Shown in pieces: positions 1,885-32,570 of a stretch of DNA of 64,000 bases; positions within the stretch are counted from its first letter, which is position 1; the number at the start of each line of letters is the position of its first letter. Below the pieces are notes generated by a model. The model saw nothing but the letters and a program-made list of their open reading frames with translations. It made no database searches and was not told where the DNA came from. A program made the translations under genes and the position numbers. Location of the stretch: the NCBI GenBank assembly GCA_050613775.1, contig JBODTK010000140.1:62001-126000 (forward strand), given 5' to 3'. Source of the DNA: Neocallimastix sp. 'constans' (Eukaryota).

Positions 1885-2850
1885 TGTTAAGATTTTGATA
1901 TAATTTATAATTTAAATTTAAATAAAATAATATGTTTTAATAAAAATATTCACTAAGTCGATATGTCTATATAGTAATATACTATATAAATATATAATAA
2001 TAATAATAAATATTTAAATGTTTAGTTTAATAAAAATTTATTTATAATAAACTTTGATAATTAGAATTATCAAATTAATTTGATTTTAAATTTATTGATT
2101 TTATTTAATAATAAAATATCTATAATATATTACTATTAAGGTAATTTTACAATAACCTTACAAAGAACATAAAAGATAGATTTTTACATCTTTCTTTTAT
2201 ACTTTGTAAGTTACATAATAATACTATTTAATTATAAGATAGTAATAATATAGTAATATAAATACTAATAAAATATAAGGATAAATTTAATTATATAATT
2301 AATTTGAATAATTGAATTTAATATAGATATGTTGTAAACATATATAAAAACATAATATAAATAAAATACACGTGACGTCAAATGTGATATGCGGGACTTT
2401 TATGTGCAATAATTTATAAGCAGTGGGTTTTAAATAATGGTAGTTTAGTAAATTTTATTAATAAAATTATAATATTCGTACAATTAAAATAATAATTCTA
2501 ATTCCTAAAATTTTACAAGAGAGTTCTCTATTTCTAATATAAATAATTTAATTTATAAGAAATAGGTAATATATTAATTATATATTCTAATATATAGAAC
2601 TATATAAATTTTATATGAATTAAAGTATTATAATTATTATAATTATAATAATACATATTGAAATAAAATAAAATAAAATAATTATTATCAAAAAGATATA
2701 AATTTAATATTTAATAATTATTATTAAATATACAAATATGTTACTACACATATTTGTTTTATATCAGAAATGCCCTTGCTAAAAATTAAACTATATATTT
2801 TTTTTAAGAAAATATAAGGTTTAATTAATATAATTAATAATTTTAAAATT

Positions 2851-4953: not shown

Positions 4954-5390
4954 TTTATTTCCAATTAATTAATTATGCAGTTATTCGTTATTAATATTGT
5001 TATTTGTTATTAATATTTAATATTATATATATATTTATATATATATATATTATTATTATTTTTTTTTTTTTTTTTTTTTTATTTTTATTATTATTATTTA
5101 ATATAATTATAATTTTTTTCCTAATACTTATTAATATTTATTTATTTTAAAACAATTTATTTAAACTATACTAAAATGAATGGAAATAGATATAATACAT
5201 AACTCTCTCTTCACCAAAAAAATAAAATAATTATAAATAGCCAATAAAAAAAAAAATAAAAATTTATATCCAAAACAGTGTATTTTAATTAATCCTAACT
5301 GAAGAGAATTTATGTAAATATATACGGATTTATAATTAATTAACAAAATTACTAAACACCACTACTTATAAATTACTTTTTACACAGCAC

Positions 5391-5409
5391 ATCCCCGATA
5401 TCTCCACCA
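5391..5409 (-). promoter_or_regulatory. Primer-binding site of B, complementary to a tRNA 3' end (probably tRNA-Ala)
   Basis: Minus strand reads TGGTGGAGATATCGGGGAT. Its complement ...ATCCCCGATATCTCCACCA resembles the eukaryotic tRNA-Ala 3' end. The same PBS occurs in G and F. Confidence 0.8.
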
Positions 5410-6012
5410 ATTTTTGATATGCGGGACTTTTATGTGCAATAATTTATAAGCAGTGGGTTTTAAATAATGGTAGTTTAGTAAATTTTATTAATAAAATTAT
5501 AATATTCGTACAATTAAAATAATAATTCTAATTCCTAAAATTTTACAAGAGAGTTCTCTATTTCTAATATAAATAATTTAATTTATAAGAAATAGGTAAT
5601 ATATTAATTATATATTCTAATATATAGAACTATATAAATTTTATATGAATTAAAGTATTATAATTATTATAATTATAATAATACATATTGAAATAAAATA
5701 AAATAAAATAATTATTATCAAAAAGATATAAATTTAATATTTAATAATTATTATTAAATATACAAATATGTTACTACACATATTTGTTTTATATCAAATG
5801 TATCATTGAAATTAATTATTAATATAAACCTTATTTATTAATATTCTCAGGATTATTAGGCCTAAGATAACCCTTTAAATATTAAACAAGAATTTATATT
5901 AATTATTAATTATTTAAATATATATATTATTTATAATTAAATAAATAATATTTTTAATTATTGAAATGTAAATAACTGAAATTGAGATTTCAATTCAGTT
6001 ATAATTTCAACA

Positions 6013-6053
6013 TAAATATGTTAGGAACATCAGACTTATTCTTGATAAGGTAG
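6013..6053 (-). pseudogene. pol: 41-bp copia integrase fragment stranded between two insertions
   Basis: Translates YLIKNKSDVPNIF and is bounded by TSD copies TAAAT and GGTAG. Confidence 0.9.
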
Positions 6054-6073
6054 TGTAACGAATCTTAAAAAAA

Positions 6074-6999
6074 TGTTGAGGTTCGGGACAGAATAATAAT
6101 AAATATAGAAATAAACACTAAAATAAAAAAAAATTAAAAATTTAAAATATATCTTTTTTTTTTAAAATATTTTATTTATTTATTTAATAAAAATTATTCA
6201 ATTAAAAACTAAAAATAAATTAATTTCTTTAATAAGATTAATATTTTTTTCCAGATTATTTTTCTAAAATACAATTTTCTCATCTATTTATATTTTTTTT
6301 TATCGTTAGAAATGGTCAAGCCATTTCTTTAGAATATCTTAGAGTTACATGTTTGAATTGTATTTAAATTATAAATTCATAATCTATTTTATTATAATAA
6401 ATAATTATTACATATTATTAAATTCTAAACTATTTATTATTAATTGTAGTGATAATATATTTTAAAAATAATTTTATTACTTTTACAGAACTATTAGTAA
6501 TAGAGTATTATTTAATTTTATACTATTTTTAAATAAAAGTATTTTAGATTATTATCTATTATTAATCTTATTATAAATAGGGTGTATTTTGGAAGGAAGT
6601 ATTACTAATTTTAATGACAAGGATCATGAATTTAAGTAAAATATTTTTAAATCATTATTAATTATATTAATTTTTATTAATAATAAATAATCTGTATTAG
6701 TAATATTTGTAAAATAAAATTTTCTTTAATAATAAAATATTAATAGAATAAATCATATTAATAAAACTAGATATTGATAATAATATTGATATTAATAATA
6801 TAGTATTAATTTTAATAATAAAGTATTGATATTAATAAAGAATTTATATTAATAATAATAAATTTAATATTAGTAATAATTTGGCAGTAATAGAACATAA
6901 GAAAGTTCCCCAAGTAAGGAAATAAATAATTTAATTTTAGTGGTTAAGTTATTTTTATGAAAAATAATAAAATTAACATTATTTGTTCATTCCTTAACA
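6074..6999 (-). mobile_element. Solo LTR C (926 bp), related to the LTRs of F and G
   Basis: Ends TGTTGAGG...CCTTAACA are inverted and flanked by AAAA on both sides. Shares TGTTGAGGTTC with the F LTR and ATTATTTGTTCATTC with the G LTR. Orientation is inferred from those matches. Confidence 0.8.
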
Positions 7000-7641
7000 A
7001 AAATGATACGTTATTTCTATAAGTATCAATGTTTTTGTGGTTAGCAAGATTGTATTAAATAAAAATATATTCTAATATAAAAATATATAATTACAATACA
7101 CGTTAATATTAAAACAAAATATAAAAAAAATTATAGTTTTGTCGTTTTATTTATTTATTTAAATTATTTATGTCGTAATACAAATTTTATAATAAAATGT
7201 TATTAAAGATCTTATTAATTATTTATTTCTAACTAACTTATTACTATTAAAATTTTTGATAAATAAATATATTCCCCAAATATATTTATTTTAACCAATT
7301 TTATCTCTATTTTTTTCCAAATAAAAAAACCTCCTCTTCTTTAAAGAATTATAATAATTTTTCTTTTATATTTCTAATTTCTAATTTACTATAAATTAAA
7401 TCCTATTGGCTATTAACTAATTAAATAAATTTAATAATTTTTATATTACTATTTATTATTATAATATACATATATAATTTAACTAATTATTTATTATATT
7501 TAATTTTATTTCTTGATAATATTCTCTTTTTATTTAAATACTGCATCAAGACGCCCCCGCTTAGCCTAGACTTCGTCCCTTGAAGTCCTAAAAAAAAAAA
7601 AAATATATATATATATATATATAAATCCATTTAAATTTGCT

Positions 7642-7703
<62 letters not shown>

Positions 7704-7813
7704 AATTAATCTTTGTTCAAAAAAAAATTTTATATGAATTATTATTATTTTATTGGTCAATTATTAATTCATTGAACATGTGAAGTTTATCAATGTAAAT
7801 GTCTTATTCATGG

Positions 7814-7859
<46 letters not shown>

Positions 7860-7875
7860 TTAGGTATGTATATTA

Positions 7876-7909
<34 letters not shown>

Positions 7910-8376
7910 ATATATTTAAATTGATGATTACATATTTAAATTGATAATTACATTCAATTATTATTTTTATTAATTGATTTAATTTCATTGTTACCATTTG
8001 TTATATAAATATATATATATTTGGAAATATCGTATAATTTAGAATTTATAACGTCAAATTTCTTTGTCAAATCTCATTATGTTCACATTATTTTCTTTTC
8101 GCCATGTATTTTTTTAATTATCATTAATATGTATTATAATCATTATTATCCAAATAAAATTATAATTAAAAAAAATAAAATAATCTTTTGAATCAATGTC
8201 TTAATTTAGTGTTGAACCTATGGTTTTAAAATATATACTATTATTATTTTTGTATATTATTATATTATTATATCTATCTATAACATTCATATTATTTTAT
8301 ATTATAATACTATCTATTTTGTTATTTTAGTTAATAATATATATTATTATACTATCTTTTTGTTATTTCATCTATA

Positions 8377-8700
8377 TTTTATTATTTTACTCAATATATA
8401 ATATTTATATTATTATACTATCTATTTGTTATATTATCAATATTTTATTATTTTACTCAATATATAATATTTATATTATTATACTATCTATTTGTTATAT
8501 TATCAATATTTTATTATTTTACTCAATATATAATATTTATATTATTATACTATCTATTTGTTATATTATCAATATTTTATTATTTTACTCAATATATAAT
8601 ATTTATATTATTATACTATCTATTTGTTATATTATCAATATTTTATTATTTTACTCAATATCTAATATTTATATTATTATACTATCTATTACGTTATATT
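8377..8700. repeat. 66-bp tandem repeat (about 5 copies) in the 3' non-coding region of H
   Basis: ACTCAATAT recurs at 8389, 8455, 8521, 8587 and 8653. Confidence 0.9.
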
Positions 8701-9030
8701 GTCTATATTATAGTTAATTATACTATCTATACTATCTATGTTTATATATTTTATTATTATATCTAATATAATCAGTTCTTATATATAATTATTATTATTA
8801 TTATTATTATTATTATTTTTTTTTTTTTTTTTTTTTTTTTTATTTTTATTTATTTATTTTTTTTTTTTTATTTTTTTTTTTTTATTTTTATTTTTTTTTT
8901 TTTTTTTTATTTTTTTGAGATAAAATTTATCAAATGTTAAGTAATGAATAAAATAAATTTCAAAATTATAAGTTTTAAATTCAGATTTTGAAATTTCAAT
9001 TTTGAGGTTTTGAAGTTTCAATATAATTTA

Positions 9031-9065
<35 letters not shown>

Positions 9066-9101
9066 TGTTAATTTTTTTTTTTTGTATATATATATGTATC
9101 C

Positions 9102-12100
9102 TTATTCTTCTAAATTCAATTCTGTGAAATATGGAATAATATTTTTTAAATGAATGTTCCTATCAGCAACTTCCCCAGTTACTGGATCGCAAACTGTTAC
9201 TGTATTGAACTCTTGTTTTACGATCTTTAGTGGGCCTGTGAAAAACGGATCCAGCTTCTTTCTGTTGAACAATTTGACCAAAACAAGATCACCTGGCTTA
9301 TACTTTGCTCTCATTCTTTTTATTTGTTTTCTACGATCTTCCCACAACTTGTTTGCTGTTTCAATGTTCTTTATTGCTTCACGGATCCAACGGTCATGGT
9401 TAATAAATTTCCTCAGCCAAAATTCTTCTTCGTCTTCCCAGTCATTTTTGGATTCGACATTAACAGTGAGTTCGAATGGTTGTAAGTCTCTCCGACCATA
9501 CAACAATTCAAAGCTGCTGTGTTTCGTAACTTCATTCTTGCACGTTCTTAAAGCCCAAAGAGCACTATAAAGTGTTTCGTCCCACTGCGAATCCTCTTCT
9601 CCGAGTAACCTGAGATACTTACCTATTTCCCTATTTCTGTTTTCTACTTCTCCATTAGACGAGGGGTGATAGGTTGCAACATAATTTACATAAATGTCGT
9701 TAAGGTCCAAAAATGCTTTTGTCTTATCGGAAGTAAACTGTGGACCATTGTCAGTAACTAAAATTTCAGGAACACCATGTCGTGCAAATATTTTCTTGAG
9801 AAAATTTATTACATCTTGAGATTCGGCAGATTGTAAGGGTTCTGCTTCCACCCATTTGGTAAGATAATCTACTAATACAATTATATATCTATTACCTTTA
9901 TTTGTTATAGGTAATGGTCCTATTAGATCCAACCCAACTCTTGAGAAAGGATATTCAGGTACAGTTGCAATATTTTCGGTATATTTATTTAATTTTTGTG
10001 GTCGACAAGTTTGACACTTGTGACAACATTTTATTAGTATTTGTATATCTTTTTTCATATTTCCCCAGTAGTAATCCCTCTTCAGTCTGCTATAAGTTTT
10101 ATAAGCTCCTTCATGGCCTAGACCATGGGCTTCTTCGATTAATTTTTGCTTCTCTTCTTTGTTGTGAACTATTCTTCTCAGTTGTTCTCCTTGTTTAAGA
10201 TATTCCACACCATCAATATTTATAATTCTCTTATTTATAAATTCATTCATAAATTTATTTATACTATCATTGCTATTATTGGATAAAACATCATTGTTTA
10301 CTAATGCATTTAATATTTCTTTATTTTCATGTATTTCTTTTGTAGGTAACCTAGATAAAGCGTCAGCAATAACGTTCTTCTTCCCCTCTTGAAATTGGAC
10401 TTGAACATTTAATATTGATAGTTCAGTAACCCATTTAAGGTGGCGATTATTTGAAGGCTCTCTATTAGCAAATATACTAACCAAGGGTTTATGATCTGTA
10501 TAAACGATAGTGGTAAAAGGGCTTCCACTAAAATAGGGTTTAAATTTTTTAACACAATGAAATATTGCTTTGCCTTCTAAATCAGTAACACTATAATTAG
10601 ATTCAGCAGCGGAAAGAGTTCTACTTTCAAAATATATGGGGATTTCAATTGAATTTTCATTTGTTTGGAGAAGTACTCCACCAAGTCCATCTCTGGAAGC
10701 ATCTGTTCGGATAATAAATGGTTTAGAATAATCAGGAGGAGTTAAAATAGGGGCAACCGTTAGTGACATTTTTAATTTTTCAAAGGCTATGTTGCACTTT
10801 TCGGACCATTCATACGGTACATCTTTCTTTAAGAGGTTAAACAGAGGATTTGCAATCTGAGCAAAATTTTTAATAAATTTCCGATAATAACCAACAGCTC
10901 CCAAAAATGATTTAAGTTGAGTGATATTTTTAGGGGGTAGCCAGTTAATTATAACTTTAATCTTATCAGGAATCGGGGCAATACCTTTTGTGGATAATAC
11001 ATGACCAAGAAGGACTACTTCTTCTTTGAAAAAAGAACATTTTTCTAAGTTTATTTTCAAACCATTGTCTGCTAGGATTTGGAATACTTTAGTAAGATGA
11101 GTAATGTGTGATTCAATTGAGTCAGAAAATATTACTAAATGGTCAATGTAAACAAATAAGCATACTCCAATCAAGTCAAAAAAAATCCGGTTCATTTCAC
11201 GTTGAAATGTAGCCGGTGCATTACATAGCCCAAACGGCATCACACAAAATTTATAGTTTCCAAACATCGTTGTGAATGTTGTTTTATCTTTATCATCAGG
11301 ATTCATTGGAACCTGATGATAACCAGAAAAAAGATCAATAGTAGAGAGTATTTTAGCGTTCTTTCCAATAAACATTAATATGTCATCAATTAAGGGCAAA
11401 GCATAGGAATCCTTAATAGTTATATTGTTTAAAGCCCTAAAGTCGACACACATTCTCCAGTCGCCGTTTTTCTTTGGAACTAGTACTACTGGAAATGCCC
11501 ATGAAGAGTAGGATGGCTCTATTAGTTTGTTTTCTATTAGCTTAATCAAAATTTCCTTTAGAGCTTTTGTTTGCGCTTTGGATAAACGGTAAGCTTTTAA
11601 CTTTATGGGTGAAGATTTTGGAATTAATTCAATCCTGTGAGGTAATAATTTTGACCTTCCTAAATCATCTGTTTTAATTGCAACTACATTTTTAAATTTA
11701 AAAAATAATTTACTAATTTTATTTTTAAATTTATTAGGAACAGAAGATATTATTTCGTTAATTAAATGTTCTTTCGTGTTAGGTAATTCATTAGTGTTCG
11801 TAATTTCTTTATCATTGGTAACTGTAATTGTTAATAAAAAAGGTTCAGATTTTGTATTTTGATGTTTTTCTATATCCTCATCATCCTTGTAAGTATTATT
11901 AAGATTGATATCATAAAATAGATCTGCTAGTTTAATGTAATTATTATTTTCATCAATATAATATAAAGTATCATCTACTAAGTTAATATCAAATCTATTA
12001 TTCTTTAGAGAATCAACACCAATTAAGATATCGAAAATATCATCCTTTTCTATTATTCTGAAATATTCATTAAAAGTTTTACTACCAATAGAAATCTGTA

Positions 12101-13507
12101 AGTCATAGATATCACTCTCTGTTGAAGAATTAGAGTACGCTTGAAATATTGTTTCAGAAATTCTACCAATAGAAGGTTTGTTGATTTTTAATTTATTTAA
12201 AGCAGAACGTGTGATAAAGTTGACACTAGCACACGTATCTAAAAATATTTCACAGTCATTATTTTCTACTTTACCGCAAACTTTAATTATTTTATGTTTT
12301 GTGATAACCGTCATCACATTTGTTATTGTTTGTTTAGGCGCTAATTTTAAAGCTTTTAAAAATTCTGTACGGAATTTTGGAAAAAGATCTAAAAGGTAAA
12401 CTAATTTTGTTATTACATCAGTTGATGCAATTTCTTTTATTAAATCTTGAATATAATAATCACCAAATTTTTCCATAAGTTTGATGTGTTTTTCAGGTTT
12501 CTTAAAAGAAGTTTCACTTTGCTCAATGTCGGTATTTATTTTCTTAGCTTTATTTTTTATATCTTTGATTTTTTCTTCCCTATTTTTACCTTTAACATTT
12601 CGAATATTTTTCTCTGTTATAAAGGAAGGATCAAGATATTCTAGTTTTTCTGTTTTACGATTTTCACTATTAAAGACCATATCCGGGTTTTCCTTAATTA
12701 TATTATTAAAATTCTTAGATCTACCAGGTAAAATATTATTATAATTTTTAGAGTTATAATTTTCTTTATCAGCATCATTATCTTCAGATTCTTCAGATTC
12801 TTCTATCATAATTACATCTTCATTAGGTTCTATATCTTCTCGTTCAACCCTTTGGGTATTGCTTGTATTGTTATGAGTATTATCATCATTATTGGTGACA
12901 GTATTTTCTTTAAAATAGTCGTAAGTATTATTTTCCTTATTTTCATTAAAATCATTATTACTATTATAATTATCTATAGTATTATTATTTTTATTATCAT
13001 TATTCGCATTATCGTTATAATTGTCTATATTATGATTAATTTTATTATTATTATTCTTATTATTGTTTTCATATTCATTATTCTTATTATTCTTATGATT
13101 ATTAATATTATTATAATTATTATTAACATTTGTATTACTATAATCGATATTATTTTTATTATTAATATTATTATTATAATTATTATTAATACTATTATTA
13201 GTACTAATTTTATTATCACTAGTATTATTATTAATATTATTATGACTCATAGCTGCCGTTTGTATTGGTTTTGGATTGTCCTTTAAATTAAATCTCACTT
13301 CCTTTCTATTGTATGGTTTTTCATTATGTTTGTTTAATTTATTTCTTGAATTTCGAGTAGCGGCTGCTATAATTTCAATTGGTCTATTTAATGTATTTTG
13401 TGTAGTGTTACTATTATTGTTTATATTAAGGTCATTACATTTTTGTTTTTCTTTAATATTATTATTAATTATAGGTAATATTGTTTGATCGTCTACCATT
13501 GTCATTA

Positions 13508-13539
<32 letters not shown>

Positions 13540-13700
13540 GAGTCGTTATTTTTGAACATTATTTTATTATTATTATTATTATATGAGTCATTATTTTTGA
13601 ACATTGTTTTATTATTATTATTATATGAGTCATTATTTTTGAATATTATTTTATTGGTTTGGTTAATGGAAGTTGTCCTTCTCCCATCTATTGGTTTAAA
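9102..13700 (-). CDS. pol: Pol of H (protease, RT, RNase H, integrase), entered by -1 frameshift; RT motif mutated to YIDH
   Basis: Motifs FLDTCAS, WRMCVDFRALN, MPFGLCNAPATFQ, YIDH, TDAS, HHCC zinc finger, TDNGPQF and a GPY/F-like GPL. The frame is open upstream of the track ORF to the slippery site at 13694-13700. Confidence 0.93.
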
Positions 13701-15004
13701 TGTTTATTGAGCAATCCTTTTTCTTCCAATTCAGCCAATTGCTTAAATGTATAAGGACATTCTGAAGCTCTATGTCCATTCATTGTGCAACGGTAACAAT
13801 TCACATGGTTGTTATTATTGTTGTTAATTGAGTTTTTATTAGTTACTAAAGTATTACTGACATTATTATTTTCTATCCCATTGTTGTGATTATTTCCATT
13901 TTGATAATTAAAGGATTGAATCATATTATTTGTATTAAATTTATTATTGTTAAACATTTGGTTGTCATGTTCTTTATCATTATTTGTTATATTAATATTG
14001 TTGTTCAAATTGTTTAAATAATGATTCGTCTTATTGTCTCTTATTTCATTGGATGGCTGATTATTATTCATATTGTTCATATTATATTTGTTATTATTAT
14101 TCATATATTGATTAATATTATTACTGTGCCAAAATTTATTATAATTAAATCTACTATTATAACGATTTGTAAAATTTCCATAGTTCATTTTATTAATATC
14201 ATTTTTATTATTCAAGTAATAATTTGGATTATTATATGGATTACTCATGTGATATACATAATTTGAATTTCTGAAATTATTATTATTGTTCCATAATCTA
14301 GATTTAGAATTCCAATTATTTCTTTCCTGGAATATATTATTATTATGGTTCATAGGTAATTGATTTAACTGTAAGTTTTCGTAGAATGGATGTCGCATTA
14401 GTAAGCTATTATCCGGCTGATTCTGAGTAAACATAATATGATTCCTCATATTATTAATTTCATTTCTTTGATTTATATTTGCTATTTCTTTTTCAGTCTC
14501 CTCAGCTACTTCTGCAATTTTACACGCCTCATTTATTGTATCACATTCTGCAACCATAACTCTTGAGCATGGAAATACACGGGAGCTAATAGCATTCGTG
14601 TAGTCCTTTACAGATATAAGTCTTCTATATTCTAAACTGAGTTTATTATATAATTTTTTATATCTGTAATTAAACTTTTTAATTGATTCTTCTTGATTTA
14701 TTTGTATTGTTTTGAGAACTGCACATTTATCATTTTCTGTAATGTGCAAATGTTCTTCAATTGTATTTTGAATTTCTTTAAATGTGGGATATCTCATTTC
14801 ATCCCCTCGTCTGACTACCAATGATTGTAACGCTCCTTGAATATCTTCTTCCACAGCTTCCTTTACCCAAATAAAAATTCGTCTTGGTTCCATTATATCA
14901 TAAAGCTCCATTATCTTAACAAAGTCGGTCATCCAGCTGTCTACATCTTTTCCATAATCAGCCAGATGTGGTAGCTTCCTTTGCAGTTTAGTAGCGTCAA
15001 ACAT
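13688..15004 (-). CDS. gag: Gag of H (438 aa)
   Basis: Zinc knuckle CYRCTMNGHRASEC, clear homology to the J Gag, and position between PBS and pol. Confidence 0.92.
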   Translation of the reverse strand: MFDATKLQRKLPHLADYGKDVDSWMTDFVKIMELYDIMEPRRIFIWVKEAVEEDIQGALQSLVVRRGDEMRYPTFKEIQNTIEEHLHITENDKCAVLKTIQINQEESIKKFNYRYKKLYNKLSLEYRRLISVKDYTNAISSRVFPCSRVMVAECDTINEACKIAEVAEETEKEIANINQRNEINNMRNHIMFTQNQPDNSLLMRHPFYENLQLNQLPMNHNNNIFQERNNWNSKSRLWNNNNNFRNSNYVYHMSNPYNNPNYYLNNKNDINKMNYGNFTNRYNSRFNYNKFWHSNNINQYMNNNNKYNMNNMNNNQPSNEIRDNKTNHYLNNLNNNINITNNDKEHDNQMFNNNKFNTNNMIQSFNYQNGNNHNNGIENNNVSNTLVTNKNSINNNNNNHVNCYRCTMNGHRASECPYTFKQLAELEEKGLLNKHLNQ

Positions 15005-15146
15005 TGTAAAAAAAAATAATTACTTGATAAAAAAAAGAAAAATAAATGAAAGATTATATATAAAAAAAAAGTATTCTATTATGATAATTATATTGTAATT
15101 ATAATTTTCTTATTATTTTCATATTAATTTATTTGATCTTGCTTTC

Positions 15147-15164
15147 CCCCCACGTTGGGCGCCA
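15147..15164 (-). promoter_or_regulatory. tRNA-Lys(CUU) primer-binding site of H
   Basis: TGGCGCCCAACGTGGGG, the classic Lys1,2 PBS, 5 nt from the LTR. Confidence 0.92.
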
Positions 15165-16527
15165 AATTTTGATACGTTATTTCTATAAGTATCAATGTTT
15201 TTGTGGTTAGCAAGATTGTATTAAATAAAAATATATTCTAATATAAAAATATATAATTACAATACACGTTAATATTAAAACAAAATATAAAAAAAATTAT
15301 AGTTTTGTCGTTTTATTTATTTATTTAAATTATTTATGTCGTAATACAAATTTTATAATAAAATGTTATTAAAGATCTTATTAATTATTTATTTCTAACT
15401 AACTTATTACTATTAAAATTTTTGATAAATAAATATATTCCCCAAATATATTTATTTTAACCAATTTTATCTCTATTTTTTTTCAAATAAAAAAACCTCC
15501 TCTTCTTTAAAGAATTATAATAATTTTTCTTTTATATTTCTAATTTCTAATTTACTATAAATTAAATCCTATTGGCTATTAACTAATTAAATAAATTTAA
15601 TAATTTTTATATTACTATTTATTATTATAATATACATATATAATTTAACTAATTATTTATTATATTTAATTTTATTTCTTGATAATATTCTCTTTTTATT
15701 TAAATACTGCATCAAAAATGGTATGGTTCATATAATTTTAGGAATATAATAATAATTAACACAAATAATAAAATTACAATAAAAAAAAAAATAATTTGTT
15801 TTAAAATCAATGTTTATTTATTTAAATTTATAAAAGAAAAATAATAATATAATTATTTATTTAATAAAAGTAAGTTATTGATTATATTTTATTTCACTAA
15901 AAATTACATGTATTTATATTTTTTTATCAAATTAAAATTTGTAAAGCCTAACTATTTTTTTAATAAACTAATTACTAATTATTTTTATAAATAAAACATT
16001 TAAATTGAAATTGAATTATTATTTTAGTTAATAATATTATTGTTATAAATAGTAGTTATATATTATTGAATTATTAATTATTTAATAATAGTTTAATACT
16101 AATATATATAAAATAAAAATAAAGAGATTATACAGAATATTTTATTGTGGTTTAGTTAAATTTAGTAATTAAAAATAAATTTAAATTGATAACGAAAATT
16201 TTAATAACTAATTAAATAGATTTGATTATTTTCAATATAACATAATACAAAAGAAATATAATATTAATATATTAAGTGGGCAAGGACAATATTGGCTAAA
16301 GATTTTTAATACATTATATGGAATCGGATCGATAATTCAAAAAGGAATTATAAGTTAATTGGTGATTTATTAACTTAAGATTTCTATTTAGTAATATTTG
16401 AAGAATATTGGAAAGTTCCAATTATATAGAATAGAATAATCTATAAGGTTAGAATAATTTATATTATTCTAGCACAATTAGTATTATTTGTTCATTCTGT
16501 ATTAAGATGCCCCCGCTAAGACTCAAG

Positions 16528-19500
16528 CTAGGTAGAAGCTGAGTTAAACTTGACAATATTTTTCAAATGAACATTACGATTCATTTGTATATTAGTAGCA
16601 GGATCAGCTAAAGTGACTGTATTGAATTGTTTCTTTACCACTTTCATAGGTCCAACAAAGTAAGGTTCTAATTTAGTTCGATTAAAGTTTCTTACTAGTA
16701 CTAAATCACCTGGTTTTATTCTTTTAGCTTGATTCATACTGGTCATTTCTTCTCTCCTAGTAGCCCAATACTTCGAAGCATTTTTGATATTAGATGCGGC
16801 CTCCATTACCCATTGGTAGTGTGATACAAATTTTTCCAGTAGAATTTCGTCAGAAGACTTATTTATACCCTTAGTTGGTCTGGCAGCAATGTCAAAAGGT
16901 TGTTGGTCCTCCCTTCCATAAACTAATTCAAAGCTTGAATGGTTGGTAATTGAGTTTTTAGTAGTTCTTAAAGCCCAAAGTGCAGATGGTAAAATTTCAT
17001 CCCACTCTTTGTGTTGTTGTCCTAGTAATCGTAATAATTTTCCAATTTCTTTATTACGATTCTCAACTAAACCATTGCTTTCAGGATGATATGGAGTGAT
17101 AAATTTAACATATACATCATATAAATCAAGGAAGATTTTTGTCATATCTGATGTAAATTGTGTTCCATTATCAGTAGTGATAATTTGAGGTACACTGTGT
17201 CGAGCAAATACATTAATTAAAAATTTTATCACATCCTGAGAAGTAACATTTTCAGTGGGCTCTGCCTCAACCCATTTAGTAAAATAATCAACCACAACGA
17301 TTATATATTGATTATTATTTCTGGTTTTACTTAGAGGTCCTATAATGTCCAATCCTAAGTGTGTAAATGGTCCTTCCACTTCAGTTGGTTTATCTTCTGT
17401 TGGTTCAGGGTATGGTTGAGATTTATTTAATTGACATTTTTCACATTTACCTATAATTCGCTTAATGTCATTAACCATATTGTTCCAATAGTAGCTCTTT
17501 TTCAAACGTTGATATGTCTTGTAATAGCCTTCGTGTCCTATACTGTGCGCTTGAAAAATTAATTGAAGTTTTTCTTTTGTATCTGTAACTAATTTTCTAT
17601 AATTATTGCCATCAACAAAGTAGTCCACACCATCAATTGTCGTAAATTTTTCTTCAATAAATTCCTTAATGGTTCTTGAAAGCAGGTTTTCATCTTGTTC
17701 TTTGATAATTTGTGTTGTTAAGATAACTTTTTCTTTTTCATTTTTCATTCTTGATAAAGCGTCTGCAACAACATTATTCTTCCCAGCTTCATATCGTAAA
17801 TCAATTCCTAACATACTGACAGTCAAACACCATCTTGTATGGCGAGAGTTTTGTGGTTCCTTATTTTTAAGTAATCCGATTAAGGGTCTATGGTCTGTAT
17901 ATACTATAGTTTGCTTAGGATTTCCCATAATATAAGATTTTAATTTATTAATACAGTAAATTAGAGCGGCACCTTCTAGATCCGTAATTCCATAATTCTT
18001 TTCCGATTTAGATAAACTTCTACTAATATAATGAACCGGATGCTCCTTTCCAGTTTCATCATCCTTTTGTAAAAGCACACCGCCTATTCCATCATAGGAA
18101 GCATCTGTTCTTATAATAAATTCTCTATCAAATCTAGGAAATCTTAATATTGGGGCATTGATTAATCTTTCCTTAAGAATTTTAAAACTTTCTTCTTGTT
18201 CCTTTTTCCATTCAAACTTAATACCTTTTCTTAATAGAGTGCAGAGAGGAGCAGTAACTTTTGCAAAGTCCTTAATAAAATTTCTATAATATCCAATGGC
18301 TCCTAAAAATGATCGAAGTTCATGAATGTTAGAGGGAGCCTTCCATTCTTTAATAGCTTCAACTTTGTTTTCCAATGGACTTAAACCTTCTGAGGATACT
18401 TTATGTCCAAGTACTTCTACTTCAGTTTGCATGAAAGAACACTTTTCGATATTGATTTTTAACTTATGTTCCTTGAATATTTCTAAGACTTGTTTAAGAT
18501 GTTCTAGGTGTTCTTCTTCAGTTCTTGAGTAGATTAAAATATCATCGATAAAGTTATAGACGCATTTTCCTATTAAGGGAAATAGTATACGGTTCATTTC
18601 TCTTTGGAATGTAGCTGGAGCACCTGTTAAACCGAAGGGCATTACCTTGAATTGGTAGTTTCCGAACTTAGTTGTAAAGGTAGTGATTTCAACACTATCA
18701 TCATCCATTAATATTTGATGATAACCGGAATAAAGATCTAATGTTGAGAAGATTTTTGCTCCATCTAAGCTATCAAAAATTTCCTCAATATTTGGTAAAG
18801 AATAAGAATCCTTCTTAGTTGCTTCATTTACTTTCCTATAGTCAATACACAGGCGCCATTTACCGTTCTTTTTAGGCACAAGTACTACTGGTGATGACCA
18901 TTCTGAACATGAAGGTTCAATTAATCGTTTATATATGAGTTTGGTTAATTCTTCTTTTAAGATATCTGTTTTTAATTTACTAAGTCGATAAAATTTTTGT
19001 TTAATAGGTTTAACTCCTTCCTTAAGAATAATTTTGTGTGGTGATAAATCTGAAGGTGTTAATTCTTCAGAAGAAGTTGCAATTATATCAATATATTCTT
19101 CAAGTAATTTAGTAATAGCTTCTCTATAATTTGAATTAATTGTACTTTGAAAAACTGTGTCATATATATATTTTATGGGTGGTAATCCTTCAATCGTTTT
19201 CAATTGTTGCTTAGCTTCTTGGTGATTCAATGCTTTGATTACACATAATAATTTTTCTTCGTCATCATATTCATTATTAATAGGTGCGATTTCTTCAATT
19301 AAACCTTGATCATTAAATCGATTAAGACTATATCTAATTGGATGTATAAATAACTGGTTATCAATTTGAGTTTTGAGGTTGATTAATATATCATAGAATG
19401 GATCCTCCTTGTCTATAATTCTACACGTAACAAGTAGTTCTAGTTCATTAATTTTTACGGGAACTTTGATTAACACATCTTCTGAGTAATCATCATTCAG

Positions 19501-20532
19501 CGTTGCTAAACGTATTCGTCCTGCACTAACTCCTATAGGTTCATACTGATAAGGTAATTTATCTAAAAATTGCTTTGTGATAATACTTAAGTTGCTACAT
19601 GAATCTATTAAAGCCTTACCACGAACTCCATCTACTATTACATCAACCATAGCAATATCATCTTCTTGTGGTTCATGATGTTTACTTTTATATGTATGAT
19701 CTATATTGTTCGTTATTATTGTAGTAGCACACATATTATCCACTGCACCTGAAATTTTAGTATTATTCTTTTCTAATTTAAGTCCTTGTGATACTTGAGA
19801 CCGTATCTTTGGAGCAACGTCCAATAATTGTCCAAATGTAATATTGCAATTACTGGAGTTTAAATCTTTGATCACGTCATAACTATCACAATCAGTTTGC
19901 ATTTGTATTCTTCTTGGAATTCTAGTTGGCATAATTTCAGTTGACTTTTCTGATGATTTTTCTTGAATTAATTTATTTAAAGTTTGTTTAGAATTATTTT
20001 CTTCCTGAGAAGTTTCTTCATTAATAACATTAACATTACTATTATTATTATTATTTTCCACAGAAGTACTAGTACTAGCTCTTTCCTTATCTCTTAGCTC
20101 TTTCTCAATTCTCATTTCTTTTTCTATTCTAGGTTGAACCATAATCGAAGGATGTAATTGAGTTGTTGGCTTTTTGACTGGTCGCGATGTTCCCCTTAAT
20201 TGATTTTCTTTTTGTTTTCGTAAACCTGGAGTAACTATTGGCTTAGGATCATCTCTTAGACTACGGTGAACCCTCTTTTCTCTTTGGTCACTAGTCTCTT
20301 CATCTTTAGGATTTGCCTTTCTCTTTATAACGTTTACTAAGTAATCCAATTCTTTGGAACCATCCGACTCATCATCAAAATCTTCGTAATAATCCGTAGT
20401 AGTACCTTCTTGGAAATCAGCAATTTCTTCATAATCATCATCTTCTTTTAAGTCAACTGTTTTGGGACGATGGCAGACTGAAGCAATTTTTTTGACGATG
20501 GGAGTGCTTCTACTCCCTTTTAGTGGTTTAAA
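16528..20532 (-). CDS. pol: Pol of G (protease, RT, RNase H, integrase), entered by -1 frameshift
   Basis: Motifs ALIDSCS, WRLCIDYRKVN, FIDD, TDAS, HHCC and TDNGTQF; no chromodomain. The frame is open from the slippery site at 20526-20532. Confidence 0.94.
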   Translation of the reverse strand, partial: FKPLKGSRSTPIVKKIASVCHRPKTVDLKEDDDYEEIADFQEGTTTDYYEDFDDESDGSKELDYLVNVIKRKANPKDEETSDQREKRVHRSLRDDPKPIVTPGLRKQKENQLRGTSRPVKKPTTQLHPSIMVQPRIEKEMRIEKELRDKERASTSTSVENNNNNSNVNVINEETSQEENNSKQTLNKLIQEKSSEKSTEIMPTRIPRRIQMQTDCDSYDVIKDLNSSNCNITFGQLLDVAPKIRSQVSQGLKLEKNNTKISGAVDNMCATTIITNNIDHTYKSKHHEPQEDDIAMVDVIVDGVRGKALIDSCSNLSIITKQFLDKLPYQYEPIGVSAGRIRLATLNDDYSEDVLIKVPVKINELELLVTCRIIDKEDPFYDILINLKTQIDNQLFIHPIRYSLNRFNDQGLIEEIAPINNEYDDEEKLLCVIKALNHQEAKQQLKTIEGLPPIKYIYDTVFQSTINSNYREAITKLLEEYIDIIATSSEELTPSDLSPHKIILKEGVKPIKQKFYRLSKLKTDILKEELTKLIYKRLIEPSCSEWSSPVVLVPKKNGKWRLCIDYRKVNEATKKDSYSLPNIEEIFDSLDGAKIFSTLDLYSGYHQILMDDDSVEITTFTTKFGNYQFKVMPFGLTGAPATFQREMNRILFPLIGKCVYNFIDDILIYSRTEEEHLEHLKQVLEIFKEHKLKINIEKCSFMQTEVEVLGHKVSSEGLSPLENKVEAIKEWKAPSNIHELRSFLGAIGYYRNFIKDFAKVTAPLCTLLRKGIKFEWKKEQEESFKILKERLINAPILRFPRFDREFIIRTDASYDGIGGVLLQKDDETGKEHPVHYISRSLSKSEKNYGITDLEGAALIYCINKLKSYIMGNPKQTIVYTDHRPLIGLLKNKEPQNSRHTRWCLTVSMLGIDLRYEAGKNNVVADALSRMKNEKEKVILTTQIIKEQDENLLSRTIKEFIEEKFTTIDGVDYFVDGNNYRKLVTDTKEKLQLIFQAHSIGHEGYYKTYQRLKKSYYWNNMVNDIKRIIGKCEKCQLNKSQPYPEPTEDKPTEVEGPFTHLGLDIIGPLSKTRNNNQYIIVVVDYFTKWVEAEPTENVTSQDVIKFLINVFARHSVPQIITTDNGTQFTSDMTKIFLDLYDVYVKFITPYHPESNGLVENRNKEIGKLLRLLGQQHKEWDEILPSALWALRTTKNSITNHSSFELVYGREDQQPFDIAARPTKGINKSSDEILLEKFVSHYQWVMEAASNIKNASKYWATRREEMTSMNQAKRIKPGDLVLVRNFNRTKLEPYFVGPMKVVKKQFNTVTLADPATNIQMNRNVHLKNIVKFNSAST

Positions 20533-21437
20533 TAATTTTCATAAAACTTCTTGCGGTTATTTTCCAATATAGAATTTAATTTAGGACAGTTTCGTTTGGT
20601 ATGTCCTTCATTGCTACAAAACCAGCAAGTACTAATTTTCATTTCTTTCATCTTGTTAGTGAGATTTTCTATAGATACATTTTTGTGGGTTTTTGGTTTG
20701 TTAAAATCATTTGAAATGTTCTTATTAAAATTACTTTTAGAGTTAAGGAGATTGTAACGAGTCTTATCATAATATTCAGTACTATTTTTAATAGATAAAC
20801 GATCAACTTTTTCAGCTATAGCGAATGCTTTGGTAATAGAAATATGGTCTTTAAGCATAACCTTTCTCCATGCGTCAGGATTATTGGTTAAGGAATCTGC
20901 ATAATCTAAAACACTAATTTTTCTTCTTCTCTTTTTATCCAATTTATGGTACAAAGATCTATAACGGACATTAAAATCTTTAACTTTCTCGTTCTTCTTT
21001 ATTTTCATGGAACGCAATTCTCGTAACAAGTTGGTTTGATCTTCTTTAAGTCCATAGAAAGTCTTCAGATGATTTATGATTTCATCAAGGCTTGGGTAGG
21101 TGGTAGTAGATTCACTTTCTTCATCATCTTCTCCTTCACTATCGCTATCGAAATCAGAATCTTCATCTTCAGTAAGGTCATTTCCATCTTCTAGTTCTTG
21201 GATAATTTCTCTTGGTTCTCCAGAAGCCGTTAATATACAAGCAGTAAAAATAGTTTCAGGATCCTTGATATGTTGGTATTTTATCCATGCCTTTAACTCA
21301 TTTGCCCAGGAGTTGATGTCAAGGTTTTGTTTAGTAAGCTTTTCAAAATCTTTTAATTCTTTCTTTAATTCTCTGAAGCTAAGCTTACTTTCTGGAGTAC
21401 TCTCTGTTGGAGTACTGGAAGTACTGGATGTTCTCAT
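20520..21437 (-). CDS. gag: Gag of G (305 aa)
   Basis: Zinc knuckle CWFCSNEGHTKRNC and capsid-region similarity to the Gags of H, J and B. Confidence 0.92.
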   Translation of the reverse strand: MRTSSTSSTPTESTPESKLSFRELKKELKDFEKLTKQNLDINSWANELKAWIKYQHIKDPETIFTACILTASGEPREIIQELEDGNDLTEDEDSDFDSDSEGEDDEESESTTTYPSLDEIINHLKTFYGLKEDQTNLLRELRSMKIKKNEKVKDFNVRYRSLYHKLDKKRRRKISVLDYADSLTNNPDAWRKVMLKDHISITKAFAIAEKVDRLSIKNSTEYYDKTRYNLLNSKSNFNKNISNDFNKPKTHKNVSIENLTNKMKEMKISTCWFCSNEGHTKRNCPKLNSILENNRKKFYENYLNH

Positions 21438-21921
21438 AAAATAAAATTTATTGTATCTATAGAATGCTAAACCTCGTAATGTATAAATTGTTATAAAAAA
21501 GTAAAAATAAAAAAAATTAAAAAAAATAAATCTTTTAACTAATAAAATTATTAATTATTTATTATTATTAATCACTTATTAAATTATAATAATCGTGCAA
21601 TCTGATAGTACACACTGTCTGACGTGCAGCTTACCTCTTGAAAGGTGTCATGCCACGCGTGTGCCACGGTTACTATTTTCAATATAAAAAATAGCAGTCC
21701 AGAGCCTACTAGCCCAATTACTATGTAGGATAAACTTAACCCGGAAATCTATGCACGAATATTAGTTTAATTTAATATTAATTAATATTTTTAACAATTA
21801 ATAATAATTAGTTAAAAATATAAAAATTGTTTTCTTTTTTTAAAAAAAATATTTGTTTTATTAGAAAAATTATTTATTAATATTATAATTTTATCCCCAA
21901 TGTATTAATTTATTATTATAT

Positions 21922-21939
21922 TCCCCGATATCTCCACCA
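21922..21939 (-). promoter_or_regulatory. tRNA-Ala-type primer-binding site of G
   Basis: TGGTGGAGATATCGGGGA, 8 nt from the LTR. Confidence 0.8.
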
Positions 21940-22741
21940 ATTTTTCATGGTATGGTTCATATAATTTTAGGAATATAATAATAATTAACACAAATAATAA
22001 AATTACAATAAAAAAAAAAATAATTTGTTTTAAAATCAATATTTATTTATTTAAATTTATAAAAGAAAAATAATAATATAATTATTTATTTTATAAAAAG
22101 AAAGTTATTGATTATATTTTATTTCACTAAAATTACATGTATTTATATTTTTTTATCAAATTAAAATTTGTAAAGCCTAACTATTTTTTTAATAAACTAA
22201 TTACTAATTATTTTTATAAATAAAACATTTAAATTGAAATTGAATTATTATTTTAGTTAATAATATTATTGTTATAAATAGTAGTTATATATTATTGAAT
22301 TATTAATTATTTAATAATAGTTTAATACTAATATATATAAAATAAAAATAAAGAGATTATACAGAATATTTTATTGTGGTTTAGTTAAATTTAGTAATTA
22401 AAAATAAATTTAAATTGATAACGAAAATTTTAATAACTAATTAAATAGATTTGATTATTTTCAATATAACATAATACAAAAGAAATATAATATTAATATA
22501 TTAAGTGGGCAAGGACAATATTCTTGGATAAAGATTTTTAATACATTATAATGGAATCGGATCGATAATTCAAAAAGGAATTATAAGTTAATTAGTGATT
22601 TATTAACTTAAGATTTCTATTTAGTAATATTTGAAGAATATTGGAAAGTTCCAATTATATAGAATAGAATAATCTATAAGGTTAGAATAATTTATATTAT
22701 TCTAGCACAATTAGTATTATTTGTTCATTCTGTATTAAAAA

Positions 22742-23334
22742 TGTTGAGGTTCATATTAGAAAAGGAGTGTGAACATTAAATAAATAGATAAATTAAATAA
22801 CTATTAAATTACACTAAAAGAATTTATCATTACACATTATAAATTTTATTTAAAGAACTATTATTAAAAATATTTATTATTTATAAATTATATAATTATT
22901 TTATTGTTAAAAATAACTTTATTAATATTAATATTTATTATTATAACAATATGGGAAACCTTTCAATTATTATTCCTATTTCATTATCACTACTATTTCT
23001 ACTATTTATTTTCTCAGAAAGGCCCCCTTCATAAAATAATATGGATAATACATATTTTATATTATTTAATTACATTATTAAAACCAATCACATAAATTAA
23101 TTAATTACATAAATTTAATATTTAAAATAATAAAAAATAACTAATATAAAAATTATTAATATAGAATATAAGAAAATTATTAATAGTAAAGAATATAATA
23201 ATATATTTTTATATAATAAATTATTAAAAATTTAATTAAAAATATCATTATTATTCTATTCTTTATCATGATGCCCCCGCTAAAACTTTTGCTATAGTAT
23301 AGCAAAGGCAAATTTTCTTATATTATTAACTAAA

Positions 23335-23378
<44 letters not shown>

Positions 23379-23608
23379 AACTATATAACTAAATAAAAAT
23401 ATAAATTTTTTTTTTTTATATATATAATATTATCATTATTTCTTAAATTTTAAAATTTTTGTATATTTTAAAATATATTTTAATATATGTATTAATTGAA
23501 ATATTTAAATTAAATAATTTAATTTATATATTACCATATATTAAAAATTTTTCATAATAATTTTTAAAAGTTCCAAAAATTTCAGGATCAACTTGGATTG
23601 TACCAAAA

Positions 23609-23639
<31 letters not shown>

Positions 23640-25714
23640 GTCATATTCTTTCTTTCAATTCTTGTTATATTCTTCGTTAGATTCTATATCTTCGCGTGTT
23701 ACTTCAACAATGAACTTTGAAACTTCTTTTTCTTCTTTCATTTAGATACTAATCCTTTTTAATTTTTTTTTTTTTTTATTTATTCATATAATAATTTCTT
23801 ATTCCATTAATTTAAAATTATTATATAACATATTTTGAAGGTTATAATGAATTCTCTAAATCAGTGATTTTAACATTATGTTTAAACTTTAATAATTCAA
23901 TTTATGAAACTAATTGAAATTTCCATTTAAAATATCACTAATTTATTTTTATTATTATTTTTTTTTTTATTTTTAATTATTTTTTTAAATTACTACTTTT
24001 ACCAAGTTTCAAAGATTCAATTTCACAATTTAATTTATTAATTTTCTTGGATTGTGAAGAATTGTTTCTTTTTTTAATATTTTCCTTTTTCAATTATTGA
24101 ATTGTTCTCTTCCTGAATTAAGAATATTTATGTTATCTTTATAGGGATTTTTCTTACTAATATTTTCTTCTTTTTTTTTGTAATTTGAATAAAATTATCT
24201 TCTTCAAAAATAATTTTCTCTTTTTATTTTTCTATAATTTGAATAATATTATATTCTTCAAAAATATTTTTCTTTAATTCACTTTTTTAATTCACTTATT
24301 TTATCTTTCAATTCAGTTATGCTTTGCATTAATAATTCTTCGTTTAAGATAACATCTGGAACTTGTTCTTCTCATATTTTGTTTAATTCTTAAAATGCTT
24401 AATGTAATTATATAATTTATTAAATTCCACAACTGGAATTCTAATTATTGATCATAAAAAAAAAATATAAAATTTATTATGTTCTAATAAATTTTCAATT
24501 AATGTAATTATATAAACACTAAATAATATAATAAATATTATTATTTCTTAAAAATATATTGTAAATTATTTTTTTTTTCTATAATTTCTTCAAAATTTGT
24601 AATATTTTAAGTATTAATTTTATATTATAAACTAAATATAAATTATTTTAAATTAAAATTTTAAAATTATTCAATGTTTATTATATTGGAACTACCGCAG
24701 TAAACCAATATATTGTTAACTTTCTTCAAGTTCGAAAATCCTTTTTCGACACCCAAGAAAGTTTTTAAATAATTTTTATTTATTTATTCCTTCAAGTTCG
24801 GTACTCTCTGTCCGACACTTAAGGATTAAAAAAAAAATTATTATACTTACCTTCAGGCTCAGCACTCTCTGGCTGACCACCTAAGGATTTTATTTAAAAA
24901 TTAAAAATTTATTTGTTAGGCTCGAAATACTCTTCGACCACCTAACTAAAAAAAAAATATAATTATTAAATTGAATTCATTTTAAAATAATTCAATTTTT
25001 AACAATTCAATTTTAAATTTATATATATTATTTTTTACTTAAATTATTACTAAAATTTTATAATTAAATTTATAATTTCTTTGTATTATTATTATGATCA
25101 TTTAATTTTATATTATATTATATTCTATTATTTTTCTTATCTATTCATCAATGTTTTCACAATCCCCGATATCTCCACCAATTTTTATGTTGAGGTTCAT
25201 ATTAGAAAAGGAGTGTGAACATTAAATAAATAGATAAATTAAATAACTATTAAATTACACTAAAAGAATTTATCATTACACATTATAAATTTTATTTAAA
25301 GAACTATTATTAAAAATATTTATTATTTATAAATTATATAATTATTTTATTGTTAAAAATAACTTTATTAATATTAATATTTATTATTATAACAATATGG
25401 GAAACCTTTCAATTATTATTCCTATTTCATTATCACTACTATTTCTACTATTTATTTTCTCAGAAAGGCCCCCTTCATAAAATAATATGGATAATACATA
25501 TTTTATATTATTTAATTACATTATTAAAACCAATCACATAAATTAATTAATTACATAAATTTAATATTTAAAATAATAAAAAATAACTAATATAAAAATT
25601 ATTAATATAGAATATAAGAAAATTATTAATAGTAAAGAATATAATAATATATTTTTATATAATAAATTATTAAAAATTTAATTAAAAATATCATTATTAT
25701 TCTATTCTTTATCA
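22742..25714 (-). mobile_element. Element F: non-autonomous, essentially non-coding LTR element
   Basis: 527-bp LTRs at 22742-23268 and 25188-25714, identical by eye. AAAA TSD, PBS at 25162-25180, PPT AGCGGGGG. No gag or pol ORF in the 1.9-kb interior. Confidence 0.92.
24721..24946 (-). repeat. Four diverged GC-rich hairpin units at about 62-67 bp spacing in the 5' leader of F
   Basis: Units at 24721-24760, 24788-24825, 24850-24886 and 24915-24946, each self-complementary. Confidence 0.8.
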
Positions 25715-25735
25715 AAAAATTAGAAATTAGAATGC

Positions 25736-25789
25736 TGGCATAGTGGTTAGTCACTATGACCTCAACCTGAACCACTAGGGTTCGACTCA
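25736..25789 (+). promoter_or_regulatory. tRNA-type (type 2) RNA polymerase III internal promoter in the 5' LTR of E
   Basis: A box TGGCATAGTGG at 25736 and B box GGTTCGACTCA at 25779, 43 nt apart as in tRNA genes. TTTT at 25804-25807. Confidence 0.75.
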
Positions 25790-26769
25790 CACCTTTACTA
25801 AAATTTTATATCATTTAAATTTTAAAGAATTTTTATACTTCATTTCTGTATTTGTTTCTGTATTTGTTTCTGTATAAATTTCTGTAAAAATTAACAAAAG
25901 AAATTCTTAGAAATTAATAGAAACAAATCAGATAGAAATTCTATTTTAATTTATCTTTTATCATTATTTCCTTTAGATTCTTTTTAACCGAAAATAATCA
26001 ATTTTTATGAAACTTTTTAATGATTTTATGGTTTTAAATTTTTATGGATTTAAATTTTGAAAAACTATAAATAGGAGTGAATTTCGCAGCCAAAAAAAAA
26101 ATATTTTTTAAAAATTGTGTTTTTATTAATTATTGAATTAATTAATAAGTAATTCGAAATATTACAATAATTAATCTTTATAATTAATATTTTTAAATTT
26201 CTTAATTAATAAAACTATATTTTAAAAAACCAAATTACTTATTAATCAAAAAGTGCTTACCTATTGTGTTACACTCTTTAAAACACGGATATTCCAATAT
26301 TCGTTACAGTTATAAAGAAAATAATTAGTTATTCAGAGGAATTAACTAATATAAAATTTAGTAGAATTTAATATGTATTAATATAACTAAAATAATAAAA
26401 TATATTGATTAATATTTAAATATAAAATAAAATAATAAAATTAAAATACGACAAAAGAATTATTATTGTTTACTATATATTTTATTAGTGTGTGTTTATT
26501 ATTATATTCTTCTGTTAGAATATATTATTTTATAATCAAACAACTTGCTCAACCGAACACTGATACTTTTAATAATATCGTATCAAATTTTGGCGCCCAA
26601 CGTGGGGGGAGCAAGATAAAATAGTATGAAAATAATAGAAGAAATCTAAATCAATAATAATAACACTGATTTATTTTATTTTGTTTAAACATATTTTAAT
26701 TTTTCTTATTATTTTTTTCCTTATTTTTTTTTTCTTTACTGAGATAACATATATTTATATATAATATAC

Positions 26770-26826
<57 letters not shown>

Positions 26827-26975
26827 ATTATTTCAAATTTTATTTTATATTATTCTCTTAAAATTATTTTCTATATTTTTTTTTTTTTTATTTTATTATC
26901 AGTTATTATAAAAATATATATATATATATATAAAATTTCTTTAATAATTAAATTATTACTAAACTAAAAAAAAAA

Positions 26976-32521: not shown

Positions 32522-32570
32522 TAGTTATAATAATAAAAATTACATTTTAATTTACATTTCAAAAATTTAT

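Follow-up and report, generated by a model that had tools for sequence, protein, structure and literature searches.

The chromovirus E, a retrotransposon of Neocallimastix sp. 'constans', carries four further retrotransposon insertions (C, H, G, and F) end to end in its 5′ long terminal repeat (LTR), immediately upstream of a tRNA-type promoter. These are probably separate insertions of related gypsy elements that aim at the RNA polymerase III (Pol III) start site, the promoter cassette of E being one of their targets. The cassette itself is likely an incidental mobile target, and the idea of a selected decoy is unsupported. The window, i.e., the whole stretch of DNA analyzed here, comprises 64,000 nucleotides (nt) of contig JBODTK010000140.1 (assembly GCA_050613775.1, positions 62,001 to 126,000, forward strand), and all coordinates refer to it. 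It contains no N, and its GC content of 22% matches the 16–22% of Neocallimastigomycota (PMC6883316). Contigs carrying parts of the window come from runs of two organisms and from animal faeces metagenomes. The evidence from other runs consists of short public contigs from the runs X1, X7, X10, X5, and X4, among which X1 is maybe of the same source as the window and the faeces runs are maybe of one campaign.

Four Insertions in One LTR

Element E spans 6054–44983 and interrupts a copia element, with a 5-bp duplication, GGTAG, at 6049–6053 and 44984–44988. Its 3′ LTR (44367–44983, plus strand) represents the empty site, with an intact run of eight A residues (A8), an A box at 44404, and a B box at 44447. 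By contrast, the 5′ LTR is split within A8. The left piece (6054–6073, plus strand) consists of the first 20 nt, ends in A7 (6067–6073), and matches the start of the 3′ LTR at 44367; the right piece (25715–26308, plus strand) comprises A5 (25715–25719), the cassette, and the remainder of the LTR. Between them lie, all on the minus strand and hence antisense to E, the solo LTR C (6074–6999), AAAA (7000–7003), the full-length gypsy element H (7004–15714), AAAA (15715–15718), the full-length gypsy element G (15719–22737), AAAA (22738–22741), and the non-coding LTR element F (22742–25714). Self-comparison and junction reading show that A7 and A5 add up to the intact A8 tract of the 3′ LTR and a single 4-bp duplication. 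A preliminary description of this DNA had proposed the split in A8, the abutted and co-oriented inserts with four unlike LTRs, the empty 3′ site, and exact AAAA spacers at 6070–6073, 7000–7003, 15715–15718, 22738–22741, and 25715–25718, and the junction reading bears it out to the base.

The LTRs differ in length, i.e., 926 bp in C, 545 bp in H (7004–7548 and 15170–15714), 786–790 bp in G (15719–16504 and 21948–22737), and 527 bp in F, whose two LTRs are identical. H encodes gag at 13688–15019 and pol at 9102–13703, and G encodes gag at 20520–21554 and pol at 16528–20538. The inserts have two types of primer-binding site (PBS), as first described: one in H and another shared by G and F, which we take to be of the Lys and Ala isotypes; the solo LTR C has none. 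F additionally resembles G in its polypurine tract (PPT), and no frame of 60 amino acids was found in its internal 1.9 kb. Target duplications of 4 bp occur at the sites of C, H, G, and F, and likewise at those of two further elements, G2 and B, described below. Nesting was rejected, since none of C, H, G, and F is contained in another, and so was transposition of the stack as one unit, since the 3′ LTR of E is empty and inserts in the 5′ U3 are not copied.

C lies farthest from the A box and F nearest to it. We infer that C is the oldest insertion, because it is a solo LTR and lies farthest out, and that F is the youngest, because its LTRs are identical. The LTR pairs differ by one substitution in 545 nt in H, by five in 785 nt plus four indels in G, and by none in 527 nt in F. 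The LTRs of E (617 bp; eight substitutions in 609 nt) indicate that E is older than F (8/609 vs. 0/527, Fisher p 0.009) and than H (p 0.04).

The tRNA-Type Cassette of E

The A box (25736–25746, plus strand) begins 21 nt past the last base of F and 17 nt past the duplication, and the B box (25779–25788, plus strand) lies 43 nt from the start of the A box, exactly the geometry originally reported. Counted from the position that corresponds to tRNA +1, F ends 14 nt upstream. The T4 run at 25804 may serve as a Pol III terminator. The consensus pattern used for the B box is consistent with the one printed in PMC3159450. On both strands of the window, the only A/B pairs are 25736/25779 and the 3′ LTR copies at 44404/44447, and the only two strict B boxes are those of the E LTRs; 300 block shuffles yielded no A/B pair and 0.49 strict B boxes per window.

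Both LTRs of E carry tRNA-derived A/B boxes without a functional tRNA. At 44399–44468, ARAGORN detects a cloverleaf of the tRNA-Glu(CTC) type, mispaired at several positions, and does so only when its threshold is lowered to 60%; an Rfam search of the cassette found no tRNA match at E ≤ 10. The cassette is a tRNA relic, and a functional tRNA gene was rejected. ARAGORN called no tRNA gene in the window; its intron-mode calls were set aside as noise.

The remainder of E is reduced. The pol remnant (42083–44046, plus strand) encodes RNase H, integrase, and, at the integrase C-terminus, a chromodomain (PF00385, E 1e-16). An in-frame stop is present, and the PBS, gag, protease (PR), and nearly all of the reverse transcriptase (RT) are missing: a deletion that begins exactly at the end of the 5′ LTR (26308/26309) and joins the middle of the 5′ LTR of another element, J, has removed them. 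Two proteins, P0134 and P0135, are 98–99% identical to E pol and have gag-PR fused directly to the RNase H or integrase end, with no RT; they represent either an RT-less derivative of E or a collapsed assembly. A second chromovirus, I (35167–42077, plus strand; 5-bp duplication ACATG), is nested in the pol of E and, having no A/B box, serves as a control.

The Inserted Gypsy Clade

The order PR-RT-RNase H (RH)-integrase (IN), the LTRs, the PBS, the PPT, and the target duplication assign G, H, and J to Ty3/gypsy (with PR scored for H and J). All three have gag and pol as two overlapping open reading frames (ORFs). A Pfam search of G, H, and J found no chromodomain, in contrast to E and I, each of which has one. 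A quick tree built from 41 RT-RH cores places G, H, and J with Orpsp1 proteins and related contigs in a single group, with a Shimodaira–Hasegawa-like approximate likelihood ratio (SH-aLRT) support of 96; E-like proteins and I form a separate group (SH-aLRT 100). Support in this tree is SH-aLRT only, with no bootstrap; P0117 and short-match loci were dropped, and the set did not include Ty3, Tj1, and DGLT-A. The closest named relatives of the G integrase bear the label Orpsp1_1 (three of the 120 rows listed), followed by plant elements at approximately 38% identity; this JGI label presumably denotes an anaerobic gut fungus. By these comparisons, G, H, and J belong to a single gypsy clade of gut-fungal type that lacks the chromodomain. 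C, without a coding part, is 65% like the G LTR over 456 nt.

The best Protein Data Bank (PDB) match of the G RT-IN region is Ty3 Gag-Pol. The alignment of G pol with Ty3 extends to Ty3 residue 1439 (of 1547), after which 10 more residues follow in G, and the predicted structure of G ends in the integrase C-terminal barrel (mean predicted local distance difference test score, pLDDT, 75; predicted template modeling score, pTM, 0.40). The pols of H and J similarly end a few residues past this barrel. Because G pol stops there, the Brf1-binding chromodomain of Ty3 is missing in G.

Several features of individual copies were also observed. The RT motif of H pol reads YIDH, whereas J and G have YIDD or FIDD; because of this active-site motif, the H copy is probably RT-dead despite its open frames. 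A tandem array of a 66-bp unit occupies 8271–8756 in the 3′ untranslated region of H. All three copies of the G LTR start with TA, where TG is usual, and F nevertheless inserted beside G. The depth of the G LTR contig is approximately 13,000 in X7 vs. tens for unique contigs, which suggests that G LTR copies number hundreds.

The Second Stack and Element B

A second stack, J-CTGA-G2-CTGA, spans 26309–35151. J (26309–34356, plus strand) is an H-related gypsy element whose 5′ LTR is cut, the remaining 277 nt being identical to the 3′ LTR (33815–34356). It is abutted by G2 (34361–35147, plus strand), a solo LTR of family G with the 4-bp duplication CTGA. Next to G2, a 13-nt remnant, K (35152–35164, minus strand), resembles the start of an E-like LTR, with an uncertain reading: it is the reverse of the E LTR start with one extra base, and its 9-mer occurs only at the E LTR termini and here. 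From these letters we consider it rather probable that J and G2 lie antisense in an E-like LTR of which K is the start; the A-box side of that putative LTR falls in the deleted part. Alternatively, K could be a plus-strand LTR end, or pol sequence with seven unexplained bases. In keeping with the age order proposed above, each stack has its solo LTR toward the LTR start, and its element with identical LTRs lies at the opposite side. Irrespective of the reading of K, G can insert without an A-tract, because the target duplication of G2 is CTGA.

Element B (2385–5796, minus strand) is a young, gag-only member of the clade with identical LTRs and the duplication AATG. Its gag is 64% identical to L014, a locus inside the branch of G, and its PBS is of the G type. 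B lies inside a solo LTR, A (1885–6012; 5-bp duplication TAAAT), which interrupts a copia integrase, and directly after CACGTGACGTCA, a sequence that contains G-box and CRE-like motifs. An imperfect palindrome is located near B in LTR A, at 5810–5911.

Evidence from Other Runs

Two parts of the window were compared with contigs of other runs: 25640–25830 with X1, X7, X10, and X5 (the best 24 of 174 loose-end rows by support) and 33790–36200 with X1, X7, X10, and X4 (the best 12 of 79 rows by support). In the first comparison, four rows show the proximal end of F, leading into an A box, a stack, an internal PPT, and a blend, respectively. The A box was found in X5, where the end of F is followed by non-E sequence that begins with AAAT and has an A-box match at a distance of exactly 21 nt (two-contig consensus, agreement 0.9). 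A chance match at this offset is unlikely, because the A-box pattern alone matches only 16 times in 128,000 window positions, and the flank resembles, in our estimation, a tRNA 5′ end. The stack was found in X10, where two contigs lead from F through AAAA into the far end of a C/F-like LTR. The F-end row of X1 is dominated by the internal PPT, and that of X7 is an unreadable blend.

In X7, the C/G-like LTR end of a further family joins the E cassette at the same base (one contig). The F–E junction itself is covered by contigs of 47 nt in X7, with no differences, and of 45 nt in X5. Furthermore, the second comparison revealed G-to-G and G-to-J joints in X7 with a 4-nt T spacer and the polarity of the first stack. 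The empty E site is present in X1, X7, and X10. The E cassette assembles as one contig with one difference, at a depth of 5052 in X7, 3463 in X10, and 2636 in X5, vs. 56 in X7 and 35 in X5 for the F–E junction, i.e., roughly 1% of the cassette depth, contig depth not being equal to copy number.

Wider scans were also performed. A metagenome scan with the pattern of the C/G LTR start gave nine loci, eight of them by chance and one real (L002), the latter showing an internal PPT junction only. In viral sequences, two patterns gave no match, a further scan gave one distant locus, and the alignment gave none. A genome-collection scan with the E cassette pattern found no match; by alignment, it gave 78 loci, the close ones being fungal-type contigs in prokaryotic bins without usable LTR flanks.

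Interpretation and Alternative Explanations

TFIIIC, bound to A and B boxes, loads TFIIIB upstream of them. The E cassette, as read from its sequence, would recruit both factors, and the integrase of the inserted clade would dock there by a contact other than the chromodomain of Ty3. Positioned from the promoter side, it would cut the same AAAA and insert its element antisense. Each newcomer would push the earlier element away from the promoter, generating the order C, H, G, F, and the stack could grow because the internal promoter outlasts every insertion, leaving the site reusable. Ordinary tRNA genes would be the main targets of the clade. E may have acquired the cassette for its own benefit or accidentally; it would spread sites of which no more than a small share is ever hit.

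The preliminary description held that a clade targeting Pol III starts uses E. The exact geometry, the A box at 21 nt in X5, and the second family at the same base in X7 support this proposal; several observations weigh against it or limit it. The clade as a whole does not target Pol III strictly: B is a counter-example, with no exact A or B box found in approximately 210 nt outward on either side, so that either its family is untargeted or off-target events are common. If K is not an LTR start, the second stack may be uninformative or a second counter-example. E is not the only target of the clade, since one F flank is the non-E A box of X5, and this flank is only 30 letters long, with the B-box position outside the stretch. 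The contigs across junctions with E in X7 and X5, at 45–47 nt, fall short of a minimum of 31 letters on each side and are suggestive evidence. The depths point to E LTRs that are numerous and mostly empty. Finally, the LTRs of G are more diverged than those of H (5/785 vs. 1/545, p 0.41; with indels, p 0.055), although G is expected to be younger.

A stronger variant, in which E took a tRNA promoter and spread copies of it, on the order of 100, and in which the unrelated gypsy clade became partly dependent on it, appears doubtful. If true, it would constitute element-on-element parasitism via a host transcription factor: the promoter LTR of E would be disabled while the tRNA genes of the host would be spared, an arrangement maybe kept by selection.

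It is quite unlikely that the integrases merely prefer A-tracts or bent AT-rich DNA with the A/B cassette as a bystander, one of the conditions that the preliminary description had named as refuting its proposal. All five spacers of the first stack and the listed junctions of other runs are indeed AAAA or TTTT, and B inserted at AATG with no boxes nearby. However, the window offers 136 A/T tracts of at least 8 nt and 824 of at least 5 nt, the A18 tract in the LTR of E itself is unused, and only A5 remained at the site after the first insertion. Moreover, the CTGA of G2 speaks against an A-tract preference, as does the AAAT at the X5 flank, and such a preference gives no reason to expect an A box at this distance of 21 nt at a second locus.

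Less probable still is end-to-end stacking next to existing relatives, for which only the first hit on E would need another cause, perhaps chance. The G–G, G–J, and F–C-like junctions of other runs fit this idea, and three of four LTR ends form with AAAA a CAA-like start motif, similar to that of yeast (PMC6673722). Nevertheless, it leaves two families at one base of E (X7) and the X5 A box unexplained; four unlike LTR ends, including one ending in TA, yield the same spacer, and the ends of B, A, and I have no neighbors. No more probable is the proposal of a selected decoy or partner site that absorbs much of the clade's insertions, or to which the clade has adapted. The preliminary description had spoken of a mobile landing pad or decoy; repeated use of the E cassette is supported, as by the second family at the same E base in X7, but nothing shows a decoy shaped by selection. 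At high depth, the cassette varies hardly at all in any of the four runs, and AAAA-spaced stacks recur; this invariance may merely reflect a young family, and the empty site in X1, X7, and X10, the rough 1% ratio of junction to cassette depth, and the destruction of E's own 5′ LTR by insertion all speak against a decoy. An assembly artefact of repeats can practically be dismissed: the sequence is very repetitive at 22% GC and the runs compared consist of contigs, none of those listed spanning the whole array, but every junction has an exact duplication, the pieces sum to the empty site, the inserts belong to different families, and the F–E junction recurs without differences in X7 and X5.

Comparison with Known Systems

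Targeting of Pol III starts is known for Ty3, Tj1, Tca8, Yarrowia elements, and DGLT-A (PMC5911963; PMC5006619; PMC4600332; PMC6673722). Ty3 of Saccharomyces cerevisiae integrates with near single-base precision at the Pol III start (PMC6673722), 2–3 bp from the TFIIIB-defined start, and its chromodomain contacts Brf1 (bioRxiv 10.1101/2021.07.27.453949). The present clade shares this precision, and G has Ty3 as its best PDB match, but Ty3 has 5-bp duplications and a vestigial chromodomain, whereas G, H, and J have 4-bp duplications and no chromodomain. Tj1 of Schizosaccharomyces japonicus is similar in its fixed orientation to the Pol III gene near the start (PMC4600332). DGLT-A, a Ty3/gypsy element of Dictyostelium, inserts 13–33 bp (mean, 15) upstream of the mature tRNA, and related families of one host differ, Pp_DGLT-A.1–3 being untargeted and.4 targeted (PMC5006619); it encodes a single gag-pol ORF and is found in both orientations (PMC5911963). 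The clade resembles DGLT-A in the absence of a chromodomain. Its distance would be similar, 14 nt lying within this range at the E cassette and the X5 A box; B does not fit and is possibly untargeted, as are Pp_DGLT-A.1–3. The clade differs in its separate gag and pol ORFs, in the antisense orientation of four of four elements in the first stack, and in a target inside the LTR of another retrotransposon.

[quoted passage not shown] E shares the tRNA-derived A/B stretch and the 5-bp duplication; unlike Helenus, it is a long chromovirus with RNase H, integrase, chromodomain, and 617-bp LTRs, and gag-bearing proteins approximately 98–99% identical to it exist. The searched text of PMC10886601 does not mention other elements inserting upstream of Helenus promoters. 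In Dictyostelium, repeated hits of TRE5-A/TRE3 at one Pol III target produce tandems without nesting (PMC5391098), and isolated B boxes suffice as a TRE5-A target, the palindrome of the ribosomal DNA (rDNA) also being valid (PMC3159450). The present stacks are likewise un-nested at one target and use A/B boxes outside tRNA genes; however, the TREs are non-LTR elements, insert approximately 50 bp upstream, and have host rDNA, not a mobile element, as their non-tRNA target.

A literature search, with subscription journals, Repbase, and supplements outside its scope, found no tRNA-targeted LTR elements in anaerobic fungi, no coding chromovirus with an A/B cassette (Helenus Table S1 may bear on this point), and no Pol III promoter of one element acting as the target of another. 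The preliminary description, which knew of no such system, agrees with this search as to the combination, whereas LTR A/B boxes and Pol III stacks are each known; the new point is that the Pol III target is carried in another retrotransposon, both parts being known separately. If the proposed targeting is true, an independent, chromodomain-less, antisense lineage with 4-bp duplications is added to the few LTR elements that target Pol III starts, and one mobile element carries the target of another. The many near-identical targets in different chromatin would then make a clean natural experiment on whether the base of insertion is fixed by the A/B boxes alone, and the stack would be an in vivo sign that the LTR cassette binds Pol III factors, which is unproven for Helenus. 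Precise safe-site integrases would also be of practical use in anaerobic fungi, which are poor in genetic tools.

Additional Observations

Gut-fungal-type retrotransposon contigs (L011–L020, L037, L066, L075, and L126–L132) occur in five prokaryotic genome bins, likely as eukaryotic contamination. Matches to the E LTR in these bins were rejected as short AT-rich chance matches; PBS patterns matched in none and in one of the five bins, respectively, and the A/B cassette was found in none of the seven E-like pol stretches examined, most of which lack LTRs. In the window, two more diverged repeat pairs of unassigned nature lie at 47354–49456 and 51558–53345 (inverted, 78–91%; direct, 78%).

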